Virus record (IMG/VR): IMGVR_UViG_3300045988_135589
Span: 1-64,000 of that record
Source: a virus
Strand: one strand, 5' to 3'
Length of the DNA stretch: 64,000 nucleotides
Shown: positions 1,401 to 56,100 of the stretch, piece by piece
Layout: each line of letters starts with the position of its first letter
How positions within the stretch are numbered: position 1 is the stretch's first letter
Made by a program: the position numbers and the translations under genes
The notes under the pieces: model-generated
The model's database searches: none
Seen by the model: only the letters and a program-made list of their open reading frames with translations
Told to the model about the DNA's origin: nothing

Positions 1401-1973
1401 ATTAGATAAAGTAGTTAAGATCCTAAAAGAAAAAGGATTTGTAGTATATAGAAAGGGCGGGAAGGAGCCAGGGTAAGGCGGCGCTTGCCCTGCCATGAGG
1501 TCGGTCCGCCTGTTTGTGGCCAGGGTCGCATATTAGTCAGATAGTGACGGACGCCACAGGAGACAGGTGGTTGACATACTCCCACGCCTAAAGGCAGTGG
1601 GATTCTTGGATACAAGCGCAAGAAACCCCGATATTACTATCGCTGGAATTACCCATACTCTCCAATTCGGAAATGCCCTTCCGAAGTATATTACGGGCTG
1701 CAAGAACATCACGGTCGTTGACCGCGCCGCACGACGGGCATACCCACGTGCGGTCGCGTAACGACAGACCTTTATTAATGCAGCCACATTCACAAGTTTT
1801 GGAAGAAGGATACCATTTGTCAATCTTGTGTTTGGAAGCAGCAGAAGGTTATCCGGTAGATGTAGATTTGGAAACACAAGGGTTTTACCGTTGTAATGAC
1901 GCAGGAACACTTCCCGGAGAGTGTGCAGATTTTATTTTTCATAAGTGTAATGATTAAATTGAAATAATCAAGT

Positions 1974-3661: not shown

Positions 3662-4190
3662 GAAAGGAGATGTATTAACAAGCACTAATGGATATCAATT
3701 CATATATGATGGAATTATTACCAAAGGGATAATGGGATGTATATGCGGAATGGCAACATTTGGAGATATTGGGTTTGATTACAAATTATGGACTCATGTG
3801 TATGACGAAGATAAAAAAACGGCATGTAAGAAAGGCTATAGAAGAAGAGAAGAAATTTTTAGCAGAAAAGATTATAAAAGTCGAAGACAGTAGAAAAATA
3901 GATATAATAAAACGATATTTAAGTGAATATGAGTATCTATTAGATGAGATGCCGAAACATGACTTCAAACCATTTGAACGAGTATTGGTAAGAAGAACTA
4001 ACCAAGAGAGGTGGAAATTGCATTTATTTTCCAGAGAATCAGGAGAAGATAATAAATACGAATGCTTAGGAGGGGGAGGATTTAGTCAGTGTATCCCATA
4101 CGAAGGAAACGAACATCTTTTAGGAACTAATAAAAATGGATAACAAATATGAAAACAATAACATACGAAGGGGTGTAGCATGGAGACTGG

Positions 4191-4652
4191 GTGAGATGTG
4201 TCTCATGTGGGGCGCAAATACTTCTTCCATGTGGGGCAGATAAATGCCCGGAATGTGGAGAAAATGGCACTTTAAGATGGGTCGACGAAGAGAGGCAGGA
4301 AATAGACGATAAGGGTCTGGATTGCTTAGGCTATGTAAGAGAGTTGAGGGTAGATGATTATTTATCTCCAACAACATTAGAAGAGATCGCGGAAGAAATA
4401 AGGAACTGCATAACATTAACAGAAAGCAGTTTTGAGTACACGGTTCTCATGGATGAGCCAGACAGGAACCTTGACATTGACAACATAATGCAGATTCACA
4501 ATGTATTGTCATTTCATAAACCACAAACACAAATTATAGCCATAATACACAATCCGGCATTGATTTACAAATTAAGTAAATTAGATTGTGTGAATTTCAT
4601 AGAGATGACAGAAGGGTATCTTAATAAAACTTGTACATTTGTGTCTAACTAA
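4191..4652 (+). CDS. zinc-ribbon hypothetical protein (153 aa)
   Basis: N-terminal CxxC...CxxC motif (CVSCGAQILLPCGADKCPECG). Confidence 0.5.
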   Translation: MRCVSCGAQILLPCGADKCPECGENGTLRWVDEERQEIDDKGLDCLGYVRELRVDDYLSPTTLEEIAEEIRNCITLTESSFEYTVLMDEPDRNLDIDNIMQIHNVLSFHKPQTQIIAIIHNPALIYKLSKLDCVNFIEMTEGYLNKTCTFVSN

Positions 4653-9379: not shown

Positions 9380-9387
9380 TATCTTTG
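9380..9387 (+). promoter_or_regulatory. Candidate Bacteroidota-type -7 box TATCTTTG, with TTTG at 9352-9355 as a possible -33 element
   Basis: Exact match to TAnnTTTG. It lies 18 nt upstream of a 31-codon mini-ORF (9406-9501). That mini-ORF sits upstream of the omega-RNA/IscB locus. Confidence 0.35.
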
Positions 9388-9544
9388 TCCAAAAAAACAA
9401 ACAGAATGGAAGAAAAAGAGATAAAAGAAGCTATGATTGAAGCCCTGACGCACTTAGAGGGGTGTAAGTATTTCGTGGCCACGATAGTAAATAATCGAGA
9501 ATAATACATAACTCATACAAATCATAACCAATTTGTATCGTATT

Positions 9545-9790
9545 ATGCATAATAGCCAAAAGCTATTCCGATTATTAGCCTAAGTGTTGAAACAAACACT
9601 ACGTTATTTAAGAATAGATAGTTACCTGCGGATGTTTGCCCAAGTCTGTAGCTCTAAGGTAAGTGATTAAACAGTTCTGGTATTCAGGAACAGTGTTGCT
9701 TACAAAAAAACCTCTTATAACATTGGCGATGGGTACTAACAGAGTTTCACTCTGACTTATGTTGAATAGACATTAAAAACGTTTGTAGAT
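9545..9790 (+). ncRNA. Putative omega-RNA (IscB guide RNA) comprising a 5' guide-like segment plus a structured scaffold
   Basis: A roughly 460-bp non-coding region lies immediately 5' of iscB on the same strand. The scaffold part, about 9572-9745, has a near-copy at 22494-22671 with compensatory stem changes. The first hairpin is GTGTT-GAAACA-AACAC here versus GCCTT-GAAACAG-AGGC in copy 2. Just upstream is a promoter-like 15-mer, TTTGTATCGTATTAT (9532-9546). Confidence 0.55.
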
Positions 9791-11017
9791 ATGGTGTACG
9801 TACAGGACATAAATGGTAAACCTATGATGCCCACAACAAGGCATGGTAAGGTAAGACGACTGCTTAAAGACAAGAAGGCAGTCGTTGTGAACCTATGTCC
9901 GTTTACCATCAAATTAATGTACGTAACATCTGATTACAAACAGGAAATTGTGTTAGGCGTTGATGCTGGTACTAAACATGTTGGTTTATCGGCTACAACG
10001 AAAAGCAAAGAACTTTACAGCAGTGAAGTTATTCTTAGAAATGATATTGTAGATCTTTTGTCTACCAGAAGGGAGCTACGAAGATCAAGACGAAATAGAT
10101 TGAGATATAGAAAACCTCGTTTTGATAATAGAATAAAAAGTAAGCGTCCGGGATGGGTAGCACCTTCGGTGAAATACAAAGTAGACGCCCATATTCATAT
10201 TATTGACAATGTATGTTCTATATTACCAATATCTCGTATTGTTATCGAAGTAGCTCAATTTGATACTCAAAAGATTAACAATCCTAATATATCAGGTAAA
10301 GAATATCAGGAGGGTGATCAACTTGGATTTTGGAACGTTAGGGAATATGTTTTAGCAAGAGATGGACATAAATGCCAGTATTGTAAAGGAAAGTCAAAAG
10401 ACCCAGTATTGAATGTTCATCATCTTGAGTCTCGAAAAACCGGAGGCGATTCCCCATCTAATCTTATTACCTTATGTGAAACTTGTCATAAAGAATACCA
10501 TAAAGGTAATATAGATTTGAAGATCAAACGGGGATCGTCGCCTCGCGACGCAGCCGTAATGGGAATAATGAAATGGAGATTGTATGAAGAACTAAAATCT
10601 AAATACGACAACATTTCTATGACTTTCGGTTATGTTACAAAATACAATAGGATTAAACATGGTATTGAAAAATCTCATGTTTTCGATGCATTTGTTATTT
10701 CTAAAAACTTTGATGCTATAAGGTTAGGTTATTATTATAAAGTAAGATTAGTAAGAAGACATAATCGTCAGATCCATAAACAAAAGATTCCAAAAGGAGG
10801 GATAAAAAGACCAAATCAATCTCCTTTTGAAGTTTTTGGTTTCCGATTGTTTGATAGGGTTATGTTTGAAAACAGTTATTACTTTATATTTGCAAGGCGT
10901 AAAACCGGTAGTTTTAATATTCGAGATATTGATGGTAAAAAACAAAGAGATATTACATACAAGAAATTGAAATTATCAAGGTGTAAACGCTTTATGGTGC
11001 AAAAGGAAATGGATTGA
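9791..11017 (+). CDS. iscB: IscB-like RNA-guided nuclease (OMEGA; RuvC-HNH, Cas9 ancestor family), 408 aa
   Basis: The N-terminus carries a PLMP-like motif (KPMMPTTRHGKVRRLL). The RuvC-I motif is GVDAGTKHVGLSA. An arginine-rich bridge helix follows (RRELRRSRRNRLRYRKPRF). RuvC-II carries a Glu (IVIEVAQFD). The HNH motif is CQYC...NVHHLESRK...SNLITLCETCHKEYH. RuvC-III is H-x-x-DA (SHVFDAFVIS). All catalytic residues are present. Confidence 0.85.
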   Translation: MVYVQDINGKPMMPTTRHGKVRRLLKDKKAVVVNLCPFTIKLMYVTSDYKQEIVLGVDAGTKHVGLSATTKSKELYSSEVILRNDIVDLLSTRRELRRSRRNRLRYRKPRFDNRIKSKRPGWVAPSVKYKVDAHIHIIDNVCSILPISRIVIEVAQFDTQKINNPNISGKEYQEGDQLGFWNVREYVLARDGHKCQYCKGKSKDPVLNVHHLESRKTGGDSPSNLITLCETCHKEYHKGNIDLKIKRGSSPRDAAVMGIMKWRLYEELKSKYDNISMTFGYVTKYNRIKHGIEKSHVFDAFVISKNFDAIRLGYYYKVRLVRRHNRQIHKQKIPKGGIKRPNQSPFEVFGFRLFDRVMFENSYYFIFARRKTGSFNIRDIDGKKQRDITYKKLKLSRCKRFMVQKEMD

Positions 11018-11511
11018 TTAATTTGAATAAAAATATAGACATGAATCGTTGGTTTGAAATCACAGTAAAAGCCGAGATTGATAATATCGAGAACGGCAAA
11101 AAAAAGAAAGTAACTGAAAAGTATTTGGTAGATGCCTTGTCTTATACAGAGGCAGAATCAAGATCTTTGGAGATTTTCAAGGATTTGTACAATTCTTTCG
11201 AGGTTGTAAAAATTAATCCTATTAAAGTGTCGGAAATCTTCTTCAACGGAGAAGCTGAGTACTGGTATAAGTGTAAGGTGAATTACATTACACTGGATGA
11301 AAAGAAAGGTAAAGAAAAGAAAACGCCATGCTATATGTATGTCCAGGCCGGCAATCCGAAAGACGCTGAGGCTGTGTTAACTAAAGGTATGCAGGGCACG
11401 TTAGGAGACTGGAATTGTGAGTCTATTGCAGAAACGAAAATCATTGAAGTGTTTAAATACGATCTGCAAAAAGGCGTAGAAAAATTGGGAGAAAAGAAAA
11501 CTGATGAGTGA
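11014..11511 (+). CDS. hypothetical protein (165 aa)
   Basis: ORF immediately 3' of iscB. It is not a TnpA-like protein (no HuH/Y1 motifs seen). Confidence 0.5.
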   Translation: MINLNKNIDMNRWFEITVKAEIDNIENGKKKKVTEKYLVDALSYTEAESRSLEIFKDLYNSFEVVKINPIKVSEIFFNGEAEYWYKCKVNYITLDEKKGKEKKTPCYMYVQAGNPKDAEAVLTKGMQGTLGDWNCESIAETKIIEVFKYDLQKGVEKLGEKKTDE

Positions 11512-17813: not shown

Positions 17814-17879
17814 AAAGGTAATAAAATTGAAATTTCAGGTAGTATCGTAATAGGTTTAAATAAAGGATGGAAACAAAAG

Positions 17880-18226
17880 ATTAATCTTGGAAAGAAGATT
17901 AATCAAAAGTTTGTTGAAATACCTTTTCAAGACTTATAGACAAAATATCCTATAAATGTAAGTTGGTAGGTATCAGCTTTCAAATTAATGAAGAATCCTA
18001 TACATCAAAGGTTGATCATTTAGCTTTTGAGAAATTAGGGAAACATGATGTTTACTTAGGCAAAAGAAAGAAACGTGGATTATTCCAAAGCTCAGTTGGA
18101 AAGTTGTTAAATGCGGATATCAATGGAGCTATTGGGATAGGTAGAAAAGTATTCGGTGATTCATTTGTAAACATGATAATCGATAGTGGGTTTGCGTTTA
18201 ACCCGATTAGAGTAAACATTTTGTAA
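17880..18226 (+). pseudogene. TnpB (IS200/IS605 OrfB, Cas12-like) C-terminal relic
   Basis: ORF 17963-18226 encodes ...VGISFQINEESYTSKVDH...RGLFQSSVGKLLNADINGAIGIGRK. The TnpB hallmarks YTSK and NADxNAAxNI are retained. The zinc-finger cysteines are replaced, and upstream TnpB sequence is lost or frameshifted. Confidence 0.5.
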
Positions 18227-18269: not shown

Positions 18270-18872
18270 GTGAGACTTACAGTAGAAGAAAACGAATACC
18301 TGATAAGTAAGTTCCTTTTGGTTCTTACTGAGTTTGCAGGAGATGAAAGAGAGATGTTTTTAATCAACTCCATACATGATAAGGCGGTGGCGGATATGAA
18401 TTATCGTCTTCCGTCTTTAATAAGCAGAGAACGTAAAAGACGAGTCATTGAGCTCCTTAAAGAAGGAACCAGAATAATCAAGGACTTTTCCGGCTATGCA
18501 GGTGATATGGGTATGATTAACGAATACGATCGTTTAAAGAAAGAAATAGGAACCGTCCAAGACCAGCTTGGTGACGTAGAAGGTCAACTTCGGGCAGCAG
18601 GAGAAGTTATTAAAAAAGAACTTGATATGATTGCTGACCGAATCAAAGAAGACCTCCTCGACCGAGAGCTGGCTAAAAGTAATGCCGAGGCCGAAAGAAA
18701 AGCCAAAGTAGATCCGAGATACGAAGTAGCTTTAGGTGATTACAAGGAGATGCTGGAAGTGATTTTTGCAACCAGAAACAAGTATTCTACGGTAGATTCT
18801 GTACATGACGATCTTCGACAGTCGGTATCTACCGGTAGAAATTCGATTATCAAAGAAGGATACAACAGTTAA
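18270..18872 (+). CDS. hypothetical coiled-coil protein (200 aa, GTG start)
   Basis: ORF starting with GTG per the supplied track. Its charged helical segments are coiled-coil-like. Confidence 0.45.
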   Translation: MRLTVEENEYLISKFLLVLTEFAGDEREMFLINSIHDKAVADMNYRLPSLISRERKRRVIELLKEGTRIIKDFSGYAGDMGMINEYDRLKKEIGTVQDQLGDVEGQLRAAGEVIKKELDMIADRIKEDLLDRELAKSNAEAERKAKVDPRYEVALGDYKEMLEVIFATRNKYSTVDSVHDDLRQSVSTGRNSIIKEGYNS

Positions 18873-19087
18873 AAACAAGGAGGAAATATGGAAAAGAAGG
18901 AATTTAAAGTAGGAGAAGTATTTACTGCCGGACTTGTAAGATTAAAATGTGTGGAAGGTGATAAATGCGATAGGTGTATATTCGAAGATTACGATTCTTG
19001 TTCATGTACAGACATAATTATTGGTCCATGTGGACATGTTGATAGACAAGATAACAAGAATGTTATTTTTATTAAAGCTGATTAAGA

Positions 19088-53158: not shown

Positions 53159-56100
53159 AAATTTTCTGCAAAAAATCGTTCAACTTACTAAACTTGTCAT
53201 TCATATTGGGCGTGATATTTATTCCTCTCATATACGGATCCCTCATCTGATCAAGACGTTCTTGAACAGCCTCCTTCACGTATTTTACAAAGAAGTACTG
53301 AGGACACTTCTGGTGAATGCTATTCCAGTAATCCGCATACTCATCATTACCTGGATCCAAAGGAACAAAATCCGAGAACAACAATGCAGGATTTTTAGAA
53401 TTTTTAGTCCTTTTGTCATAGAAATTGACCGCTACCTCTCTTGAACCCCTGTCATCCATTCCCTCCAACTGAACTGATATGTTATCAGACATGTCAATAA
53501 AATTATCAACAAGGGTTTTAACAACATTCATTTCTTCTGGCTTAAGGTAAGAACCATGAACCTTTACTATATCATAAAGATCATTCTTAACATCAGCCTT
53601 AGAAGCCAAACGGGGAAGACCATTACGTATAAGATACTTATCATAAGAATAACCTTCCTTCTTTCCGGTATCTACAAAATCACAGGTTCCAAAACTTGAT
53701 TTGTAACCATCCACCGGATAATTACGCTCCTCGACCGAAGGATCTATACCCGCCTTAAGAAGCTCGTCATTCGTAATCTCAACCCTTTCTGTAACATAAG
53801 AATTTTTACCGGAACCTACTTGAGCGGTCAAGAATCTTCTAACAGTGCCATTATCTATCTCGGCATCCATATTAATGGCATTAATAGCAGTAGGATCCAG
53901 ATTATTTACCTTTCCTGCCATGTAACCAGACAATCTTCTAAACTGAGCCTTCTGCAAAGACTTTTCCGGTGAATCGGCATTCCAATTGTATCTTTTGTAA
54001 GAATCAAGGTAATGATACTGAGATAACTTATCAGAAATCTGATCAGGAGATACAGACATTTTTATCTCATCCTGCATCTGACCTGCTATCATATCAGACA
54101 CTCTACTGTTTTTCTCAGCATATCTTAGCTGGGTAATAGTTAATGGTTCACCTTCCTGATAATCTTTTAAATCTATATCACCATCCTTATCTATGGTCAT
54201 ATAATCTGATATATTAAAATCAGGATCGCCGTTGAGTTTCTTCATTCCATTAATAAGAGCCAATGTACCAGCAGAAGAACCATTATTCTCGCTTGTAATA
54301 GCATCAGATATGTTTTTCCCCAACTTGCCGGCACTCGCCTTAGCTCCTAATGACGGAGATATAGCACTAAGAATATCTATTCCTCTTGAAGGGTCCATCA
54401 TGTATTCTCTGAACCCTACGGCATCAGATACACCAGTTGTTATGGCTGTGGCGAGCAGGAAGGCTCCAGCCTTATCATCTGTATCGGTAAGATTTATAAA
54501 AGAATTTCCTTTCATAAACTTAGCATTACGAACTTTACTGATAATATCCTTATTTTTTTTAGTAACTATATTATCTATTTGATAATCAGTTATGTTATTT
54601 ATAGCCTTTGTAGCTCCATTTGCCTTAGAATCAGAAAGAAGTAAAGCATCATAAGCTTCAGACAGTCTGTTATTTCCTTGTCCAAAATATCCGTTTTTCT
54701 GACCTCCATTATTTTTTAAATAAGAATATATCCGTTCTTCAGGAGTCATATTAGCATACAATCCTGGGTCAGTTTTTTCTTCTTCGTATGATGCTGCAAC
54801 GATATTACTTCTGTCTGTAGGAGATAATGAATTATATAATTTCAATAAATTTGCTCTACGCTCTGTGGAAGAAGATGTGAGTTGTTCATAAGGAATATTA
54901 GCCAAATTAACAGATCCTATCTTACCCGTTCCAGAATTGATAGCCGTAGGCCCGTCCATAGGAGCCATCGGCACTCCTACACCGCCTGCTCCTCTTGTGC
55001 CTCCGGATGAGCTTTCAGTGCCCATCTTGGAACCGTAAGTACGCATGTATTCGGTTTCAATCTTAGCCTGTGCAAGTTGCTCTTTTGCCAACGATATTTC
55101 AACCATAGACTTAGCATTATCAGTCAAAAACTTTTGCTGAGCCCTATCCTCTGCCAACCTTGCAAAATAAAGATCATCTTTCTTCCTTTCAAAACTTGTA
55201 TTGTCGTATCTCCATGCATCAGTCATCTTATCGAAAAGATTATTGGTAACAACAAAATTAGCAGCCGCTACCGGATCTGATGAAGCTATTATCATATCTG
55301 CCTCCCTCTTGGCTTCTGCTTTCTGATTTTTAGCTTCCTGTATCTGACTGTCAATACGATCAATAATATCCTTATTATCCCCTACTGATTTCCTTTTTGC
55401 TTCCAATGCTCCTATGTGCCTATCGTATCTTTCGACATAAGACCCAATGTATTGACTAACCAAATCCGGATTACTGAACACCGGATTGGTAGCTGCCATG
55501 TATGATGCTTCTATTCTCATCTGATTCCTCATGTTTTCAGATAAGTTAGCAGACACAAAATTCCTTATCTGGGAATCAGTAAGCTCATCTACGTTGACTT
55601 CTATGATTCCACCAGTAGGATTACCTTTAACATCATATTCTGTTGTCTGAATCTTCTTGCCTTTGTTGTTTTTCCTAAAATCACTGACCAGCTTATTTAT
55701 CTCCTTAGTATAATCGACATAAGGAGAATAATGAAGACCTCCCAACCTTGATCCTGCTTTACCATCTGACCTCCATTTGTAATAAGGGTCCAAAGCATGC
55801 CATTCATTAATAGGAGAATAAAGTTCAGGATGATTCTGTTTTATAGATTCTATTTCCTTCATAACCCTCTTGCCTTCTTTTGTGCCGGCAATCGCGTTAA
55901 TGACCGTATCATCTAACACCGAACTTATCTCTCCTTGTATGGCTCTCGTAACACCATCAGAAGAAAGATCCACGCCTTTGAATTTTTGATTGATGTTAGC
56001 AATCACACCTGACATCTTATCTTCCATATAAGCGCGGGCTTCAGGCTTATCTATCTCTTGACTCATAAGATAATCTACCTGGGTATAGATCTTTTCACGA

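Follow-up and report, generated by a model that had tools for sequence, protein, structure and literature searches.

Results

An IscB locus in the DNA of a crAss-like phage

We analysed a stretch of viral DNA of 64,000 nucleotides (positions 1 to 64,000 of IMG/VR record IMGVR_UViG_3300045988_135589; hereafter the window), in which an iscB gene follows an omega-RNA locus on the same strand. The features of this locus, and of a second omega-RNA found elsewhere in the window, are listed in Table 1. The first 25 kb of the window are 92.8% identical (75% covered) to csAssE-Sib (OR575929.1; spelled crAssE-Sib in the original paper), an Epsilon crAss-like phage of 151 kb from the human gut (PMC11054128). 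Judging by this identity, the window is Epsilon crAss-like phage DNA, and an initial annotation made from the letters alone had rightly placed an IscB/omega-RNA locus in a phage genome.

Table 1. Coordinates of the IscB element, the omega-RNA mini-element and adjoining features in the window
Feature	Position	Strand	Description and basis
Promoter-like TATCTTTG	9380-9387	+	In the phage flank; conserved in csAssE-Sib, which lacks IscB
Truncated small phage gene	9406-9504	+	31-39 codons; alignment to csAssE-Sib (L001), translation
Predicted omega-RNA guide	~9475-9490	+	GTGGCCACGATAGTAA; flank-derived, directly 5' of the scaffold
Complete non-autonomous IscB element (omega-RNA, iscB and right-end tail)	9491-11040	+	1550 bp; absent from csAssE-Sib
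Omega-RNA scaffold (HEARO)	~9491-9760	+	Homology, P1 stem and Rfam
iscB gene	9791-11017	+	408 aa; PLMP-like N-terminus, split RuvC, Arg-rich bridge, HNH, putative C-terminal domain
Right-end tail	11018-11040	+	23 nt, AT-rich, TTAATTTGAATAAAAATATAGAC; directly after the iscB stop codon
ATG adjoining the element	11041-11043	+	Start codon of the DUF4494 gene; putative TAM-type (target-adjacent) motif, reverse complement CAT
Predicted guide of the orphan omega-RNA	22407-22422	+	CATTATGATCAGTGTT; directly 5' of the insertion
Mini-element (PATE-like)	22423-22786	+	364 bp; scaffold 22423-22686, then hairpin and right end
ATG adjoining the mini-element	22787-22789	+	Start codon; the 115-aa gene that it opens lies upstream of the PD-(D/E)XK exonuclease gene

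Profile searches assigned the product of the open reading frame (ORF) at 9791-11017 to IscB. Pfam recognised RRXRR at residues 2-175 (2e-60) and HNH at residues 195-238 (9e-10), and the NCBIfam equivalog NF040563, "RNA-guided endonuclease IscB", matched residues 2-303 with 359.8 bits (E 1e-107; cut-off, 175 bits). A sequence search of the PDB returned the solved IscB structures with E values of ~1e-44 to 1e-46. The PLMP-like motif of the N-terminus reads PMMP (residues 11-14), the arginine-rich bridge is RRELRRSRRNRLRYRKPR (residues 93-110), and residues 2-110 align with residues 4-113 of OgeuIscB. RuvC contributes D58 (in GVDAGT), E153 and H296..D299, and HNH contributes H210/H211, N224 and H233, with CxxC at residues 195-198 and 229-232. 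D58, E153, H296, D299 and H210 align with D61, E193, H340, D343 and H247 of OgeuIscB. All eight catalytic positions are invariant among 61 unique proteins of the family, and the ratio of nonsynonymous to synonymous substitution rates (dN/dS) is 0.06-0.20 against ten family members, indicating purifying selection. By these sequence matches the ORF is a bona fide, full-length IscB. The initial annotation had named the same motifs in an intact IscB ORF and had suggested a profile or structure search against IscB; the NF040563 and PDB matches and the aligned catalytic residues bear it out.

OgeuIscB (Kato 2022, PMC9640706; PDB 7utn/7xht) has the same domain order, the same catalytic residues and a HEARO-type omega-RNA upstream with a 5' guide. 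However, it comprises 496 aa; the protein of the window, at 408 aa, lacks ~35 residues after the bridge helix, and its putative C-terminal domain has no detectable sequence similarity. A recognition (REC) lobe is absent, in keeping with the small size.

The omega-RNA scaffold and its guide

The Rfam family HEARO (RF02033) matched positions 9549-9740 with 107.8 bits (E 3e-21; model positions 1-211), and a second match, which had escaped the initial annotation, lies at 22423-22667 (95.2 bits). Both RNAs exceed the gathering score of 83 bits and cover the whole model. HEARO RNA was reportedly described by Weinberg in 2010. At the iscB locus, 13 of the 40 consensus pairs of the scaffold show compensatory changes. 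The omega-RNA that had been proposed upstream of iscB on the same strand is thus confirmed by a covariance model, the check that had been suggested for it.

The scaffold begins further upstream than the Rfam match. Similarity between elements at different sites starts at ATAATCG (9491-9497), and in the RNA this heptamer (AUAAUCG) pairs with 9569-9575 (CGAUUAU), just before the conserved UAGCC, which is where the HEARO model has P1. Both strands of P1 change jointly in subfamilies (ATAACCC/GGGTTAT, ATATCCG/CGGATAT). Across 26 sequences the helix is 79.7% paired, versus 17-52% with the partner slid; its six double-change cells were reached by none of 500 shuffles, and it appears in the unconstrained minimum-free-energy fold (z = -2.8). 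Since the cross-site homology and P1 both begin at 9491, we place the scaffold start there and reject 9549 as the true 5' end. Sequence comparison identifies the Rfam start as a local truncation, the first multi-hairpin domain inside P1 being divergent.

These results alter the earlier picture of the RNA. Its start had been set near 9545-9550, behind a promoter-like TTTGTATCGTATTAT at 9532-9546, and 9550-9571 had been taken as the guide. The motif does stand at that position, but it lies in a hairpin inside the scaffold, and a promoter before the scaffold is not supported; likewise, 9550-9571 is scaffold sequence, and the target assay proposed on its basis would have used the wrong guide. The predicted guide is phage flank DNA 5' of 9491, not scaffold, and its presumed length follows the 16-17 nt of OgeuIscB (PMC9640706). 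The omega-RNA of IscB has the right end (RE) of the transposon as its boundary according to Meers et al. (PMC10055086), with which a flank guide 5' of 9491 agrees; the RE side of our element coincides with P1 of the structured omega-RNA.

IscB homologues of other phages are on record. GenBank phages yielded 31, among them those of Clostridium phage c-st, Ralstonia and Staphylococcus phages and cyanophages; all are <60% identical to the clade of the window protein, none is from a crAss-like phage, and they are labelled HNH endonuclease or hypothetical. The simple label "HNH endonuclease" would suit a protein-only homing enzyme, like the free-standing HNH enzymes of T4 type, with the upstream structure a mere leader. 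This is scarcely credible in view of the equivalog-level IscB match, which includes the RuvC and bridge regions, of a HEARO score above the gathering threshold with covariation, and of the persistence of the RNA alone as a mobile mini-element (see below).

Element boundaries and insertion polymorphism

Homology to copies at other sites runs from ~9491/9495 to ~11040 and delimits a complete element. The closest relative, csAssE-Sib, has neither this element nor the mini-element, and an omega-RNA core profile found no match in 150 kb of csAssE-Sib. In a BLAST comparison, window positions 9492-11000 stand in place of 144 bp of csAssE-Sib; by the defined junctions, the element replaces 181 nt. The junctions are precise, with only 2-3 ambiguous bases, at the ATG. 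On the right, the 23-nt tail is kept in elements at ~17 different sites and becomes the new leader of the downstream gene. On the left, the element cuts short a small phage gene that encodes 86 aa in csAssE-Sib (WOZ57362.1) and supplies the last 4 codons and stop codon of the remnant. A 31-codon mini-ORF (9406-9501) had been noted here before; it exists, as this truncated remnant.

Relatives of the IscB protein number in the thousands (78-97% identity, almost all 406-408 aa) and sit on gut-metagenome contigs of up to ~160 kb. IMG/VR contained 302 matching stretches, of which 80 were kept as loci, many contigs being partial. Clustering of the flanks of 93 loci gave ~18-20 sites, and several contigs hold two copies. 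Three variants inspected closely lay in three different phage neighbourhoods. Copies at the same site share 97-98% protein identity and are near-identical in many contigs. At the site of the window (site 1), 111 related contigs were usable, 21 of them occupied and 90 empty. Among 185,579 bacterial and archaeal species genomes, two contigs had a relative of at least 68% identity, and at least one of these (L097) is a crAss-like contig. Homologues from bacteria at 45-55% identity were also collected (L099-L103). More generally, >16% of HEARO/IscB fragments have been classed as viral (Goltsman 2022, PMC9755519).

L097 (NZ_JBHMEP010000019.1) is a 20-kb contig of a "Vibrio olivae" assembly whose IscB is 78% identical to that of the window. 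The flanking sequence corresponds to the csAssE-Sib capsid region and to window positions 26877-27452, and the contig appears to be crAss-like phage DNA within a Vibrio assembly, perhaps through contamination or an unexpected host.

An ATG at both junctions

The right flank opens with ATG at all ~18 IscB site classes and at three mini-element sites, and at each site a co-oriented phage gene starts with this ATG. For 12 site classes the empty version is available from csAssE-Sib. Where a site is empty, ATG follows the left flank as well, at 10 of 11 junctions (chance, 1/64 each), L041 being the exception. Clean empty junctions read GTTTATATC^ATGAAAG (L037), AATTAAA^ATGAGC (L063) and, at the portal gene, ATAGCTC^ATGGAG (L056). 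Other insertions come with apparent left-side deletions of 38-1246 bp, and at these sites the left flank likewise runs into ATG in the empty genome (L031, ATGGAA; L067, ATGTTC; L069, ATGAGT; L045 and L090, ATGTTT). The left-flank differences had first been put down to insertion at the downstream ATG with random deletion thereafter; this was revised, as the left junctions also adjoin ATG in empty genomes.

Position 4 of the motif is never C, and the putative TAM is ATG(D). ATG at both junctions fits a target composed of guide and TAM; for comparison, the TAM of GstIscB is TTCAT, with the reverse complement ATGAA (PMC10055086). This motif, located at the left end (LE) of the GstIscB element, is of the same kind as the ATG flanks described here. 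In contrast, the TAM of OgeuIscB is NNRR/NWRRNA, and the IscB of the window, unlike OgeuIscB, resides in a phage.

Some loci depart from the common pattern. L014 and L002 are rare variants resembling plain deletions: nested deletions of 25-62 nt adjoin the left end of the element (L014 ~2280-2340, L002 ~3700-3760; the site of window 9428-9490), and each occupied copy would therefore have a different guide. Some nested-deletion copies no longer adjoin the ATG of the empty allele. At the right junction of L041 and L044 (~4215-4250), empty csAssE-Sib has no ATG (GGTAA^CAACGG), and the occupied loci read AAAAAT ATGAAT AACGG, as if ATGAAT had come with the element to form a new start for the downstream gene. 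In L045 and L043 (csAssE-Sib 55282-55321), the iscB frame apparently lacks the usual stop codon and tail and enters the first codons of the downstream gene (AATGAAAGAAATTCTG..TAA); these loci may represent a fusion or a variant right end.

At site 1, 84 empty alleles had a guide match; in 71 of them the counterpart of 9475-9490 runs into ATGAAG, 181 nt upstream of the start codon of the DUF4494 gene. The element therefore replaces the stretch between two ATG sites, truncating the small gene, which is evidently dispensable. Such a replacement would arise most simply if copies inserted at two adjacent ATGs and then recombined with each other; alternatively, Y1 chemistry may have employed a pair of TAMs, or drive may have selected for flank deletions ending at a TAM. 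In csAssE-Sib and 12 of the 84 empty alleles, ACG takes the place of this ATG (csAssE-Sib ~18860-18880, homologous to 9475-9490). The putative TAM is lost through this synonymous change (AAT to AAC), and these alleles may have escaped cutting by IscB. IMG/VR contains no instance of the exact site-1 guide with ATGAAG after it; the same guide haplotype was seen either occupied or empty with ATG changed to ACG. The missing combination of guide and ATG and the ACG haplotype are suggestive of activity in nature.

The left flank and guide of the window copy match no ATG-bearing empty allele exactly, which would also be expected if gene and RNA were the inactive, decaying remains of an old insertion, and fragments of TnpB in the window show that elements of the OMEGA type (short for obligate mobile element-guided activity) do decay here. 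That the locus is such a relic is very unlikely, given its full-length ORF with invariant catalytic residues and a dN/dS of ~0.1, the compensatory changes in the RNA and the near-identical copies at the same site in many contigs.

An omega-RNA-only mini-element

The second HEARO match belongs to a mini-element with no iscB downstream; the next ORFs encode a 115-aa protein and a PD-(D/E)XK exonuclease. Relative to csAssE-Sib it is a precise insertion of 364 bp at CAGTGTT^ATGGAATTG. Of 117 related viral contigs, 29 carry it and 88 do not, and sister mini-elements occupy two further sites; at all three sites the mini-element ends at ATG. The predicted guide matches 69 of the 88 empty alleles exactly, followed by ATGGAATTG, and 19 of the 88 are changed within 3 nt of the ATG. 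The omega-RNA core shares ~80% identity with its counterpart in the resident IscB element, and is closer (84-89%) to that of a different IscB subfamily. The hairpin behind it is strong (z = -4.1). We considered the tail a homologue of the iscB 3' end and dropped this idea, the likeness to the 3' end of the IscB elements being confined to the last ~25 nt.

The mini-element thus keeps ends and omega-RNA, has no protein gene and was inserted independently at its sites, and by its sequence it is PATE-like (palindrome-associated transposable element). Like the known PATE-like derivatives of IS200/IS605, it consists only of omega-RNA and ends, is mobile and is polymorphic; in contrast to them, it is phage-borne. 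PATE-like elements carry omega-RNAs that are used in trans (Meers et al., PMC10055086). As a protein-less derivative with its own guide, the mini-element would borrow IscB in trans.

Discussion

Our analysis revealed an element with discrete ends and without target duplication, which lies next to a motif and is polymorphic for presence and absence, all of which its sequence shares with IS200/IS605. Since no TnpA was among the window ORFs scanned, it is at most a non-autonomous member of this type, as are ~98% of iscB loci. In the reading that we favor, and whose probability we put at about 0.75, 9491-11040 is an IS200/IS605-type OMEGA element that is non-autonomous and passes between co-infecting phages through RNA-guided homing.

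The origin of the transcript can be considered from the flank. The promoter-like TATCTTTG occurs 10 times in the window versus 4.8 expected, a number reached in 3 of 100 shuffles. Its sites include 9182, 9380, 16418, 59065 and 60159, and it also precedes the portal gene in relatives (flank of L056). It fits the -7 motif of Bacteroidetes, TAnnTTTG, and is possibly a phage promoter -7 element of this type. The copy at 9380 had been read as a promoter-like signal in front of iscB; its position stands, but it belongs to the phage flank and is conserved without IscB, and so is not a signal of the element. It is a possible candidate source of read-through transcription into guide and omega-RNA, a route that Meers et al. 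(PMC10055086) describe for IscB. Transcription probably enters the element from outside, because the orientation of the element always matches that of the flanking genes, TATCTTTG lies in the flank and IscB depends on outside transcription and orientation (Meers et al., PMC10055086).

A transcript entering from the phage flank would yield an RNA with a guide of ~16 nt (9475-9490) and a HEARO scaffold of ~270 nt that binds IscB. The complex would cut the guide sequence followed by ATG, which is present only in related phage genomes without the element. Carriers have ATA, the first bases of the element, directly after the guide DNA, while non-carriers have ATG after the same sequence; an ATG-type TAM would therefore restrict cutting to non-carrier alleles. 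During co-infection, or after excision, the break would be repaired from a carrier copy, so that the element is copied in (homing or retention). New sites would presumably be reached through a Y1 TnpA acting in trans. Landing exactly 5' of a start codon, co-oriented and with an AT-rich leader of its own, the element would do little harm to the phage. Meers et al. (PMC10055086) have demonstrated such homing or retention logic by experiment for TnpB and IscB, and "non-restorative homing" into co-infecting phages is listed in a 2026 review.

Several points weigh against this reading. The Pfam scan covered 63 window ORFs (70-372 aa) and detected no Y1 TnpA (PF01797) in them; host-encoded TnpA was not searched for. 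The right end (10941-11048) has no significant subterminal hairpin; the stem seen there is AT-rich and weak (z = +1.0 to +1.2). At the mini-element site, the 69 perfect targets among the 88 empty alleles are still empty. Contigs with the mini-element site appear in the list of IscB loci in 8 of 29 occupied and ~19 of 88 empty cases, and this list, which comprises 80 of the 302 matches with many partial contigs, establishes no link between mini-element and iscB. Most empty site-1 alleles differ from the window guide by one base, at position 11 or 14 from the TAM. Such mismatches block OgeuIscB (PMC9640706), and the guide of the window copy may therefore have few live targets. The ATG rule could stem from transposase specificity together with selection against gene disruption, and lineage structure could account for all hints of conflict at both sites. 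Finally, the C-terminal 105 residues of IscB (304-408), where a TAM-interacting beta-barrel domain would be expected, had no match in the PDB sequence search, and an AlphaFold model built with 25 homologues reached a mean predicted local distance difference test (pLDDT) of 47 and was not used. The low value arises because the available homologues are all at least 78% identical; beta-strands are predicted at residues 350-395 with a pLDDT of ~70 within this low-confidence model.

The absence of TnpA from the scanned ORFs, which agrees with the initial annotation, bears on two further explanations. One is that movement occurs without TnpA, only by IscB-triggered recombination between co-infecting genomes, with new sites and two-ATG replacements arising through recombination between copies or ectopic repair. 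It would account for the lack of TnpA in the window ORFs and among the csAssE-Sib annotations, for a right end without a significant LE-type hairpin and for the replacement of segments between two ATG sites, as recombination of nearby copies would produce. Homing alone, however, cannot make the first copy at a new site, and scarless insertion 5' of CAT/ATG at ~20 unrelated sites is the hallmark of Y1 "peel-and-paste" integration next to a TAM (PMC10055086); moreover, a TnpA encoded by the host lay outside the search. We regard this explanation as rather unlikely. As neither a TnpA in the scanned ORFs nor a significant right-end hairpin was found, mobilisation by TnpA is no more than presumed in our preferred reading.

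The other is domestication: the phage would have fixed IscB for its own benefit, for instance to cut host or competitor DNA, and the element would no longer be mobile. The missing TnpA had led the initial annotation to this possibility and to the view that the locus is not a simple mobile copy. Strong purifying selection on iscB is in line with it, as is the near confinement of close relatives to phage contigs (302 stretches in IMG/VR versus 2 contigs in ~186,000 species genomes), and cutting of IscB-less relatives would incidentally benefit the carrier phage. Yet the same site is occupied in some genomes and empty in others, and with ~18-20 sites and multi-copy genomes the element is not fixed at one locus. 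Its guide is the adjacent flank and matches the empty allele of its own site, as in selfish OMEGA elements. Furthermore, iscB without tnpA is the norm, the two being linked in only ~1.5% of cases (Meers et al., PMC10055086). Domestication is therefore improbable, and the argument from the missing TnpA to an immobile copy is not supported.

The non-autonomous, homing element that we favor has its closest counterpart in ISGst5/GstIscB of Geobacillus stearothermophilus (Meers et al. 2023, PMC10055086), which likewise has an RE-bounded omega-RNA, is non-autonomous, is co-oriented with outside transcription, is explained by a homing/retention model and has PATE-like omega-RNA-only relatives. GstIscB is chromosomal, a TnpA is known in the same genome and both LE and RE are recognisable; for the element of the window no TnpA is known and a right-end hairpin is not evident. 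The arena proposed for homing also differs, being phage co-infection in our case.

Phages like T4 carry free-standing homing endonuclease genes, such as Seg and Mob, which act by intronless homing and marker exclusion. The element resembles them as a phage nuclease gene between conserved genes that is predicted to cut the allele of co-infecting relatives without it and thereby to be copied in. Unlike them, it would recognise its target by an RNA guide and a TAM, and it has transposon-like ends and many sites.

A bolder proposal, which we hold tentatively and at somewhat less than even odds, sees in this IscB clade an RNA-guided gene drive specialised for phages. The drive would cut guide plus ATG at gene starts among co-infecting Epsilon crAss-like phages, possibly without any transposase; omega-RNA satellites would parasitise it, and targets would escape by synonymous changes in TAM or seed, for which ATG to ACG at site 1 and CAGTGTT to CAGTATT at the mini-element site are candidates. 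CAGTGTC is another natural variant of the latter site that may be an escape. If true, it would be a natural, population-scale case of non-restorative homing, so far only proposed, and would shape phage gene content by deleting small genes between two ATG sites.

IscB-omega-RNA elements, the missing TnpA, the homing logic, PATE-like derivatives and viral occurrence have all been published already. This study provides insights into the setting: a large clade of compact IscB elements (408 aa), found mainly on phage contigs, resides in Epsilon crAss-like phages of the gut, in which hundreds of natural occupied and empty alleles give candidate guide, target and TAM without an experiment. They offer a tractable system for RNA-guided homing between co-infecting phages and for trans use of orphan omega-RNAs, as well as a source of small IscB variants with a putative short, ATG-type TAM.

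Other mobile or regulatory genes were also observed in the window. TnpB fragments lie at 1591-1830 (- strand) and 17838-18220 (+ strand), homologous to C-terminal parts of the two TnpBs of csAssE-Sib with 80% and ~50% identity. From their sequence they look like decayed OMEGA remains, suggesting that the phage lineage hosted TnpB elements besides IscB. One of the 63 scanned ORFs (not localised) has hits to the T5orf172/MUG113/GIY-YIG nuclease families (E 2e-8 to 4e-4); this phage may thus also carry a homing-endonuclease-like gene of the protein-only kind. A further ORF has a hit to the AntA antirepressor.

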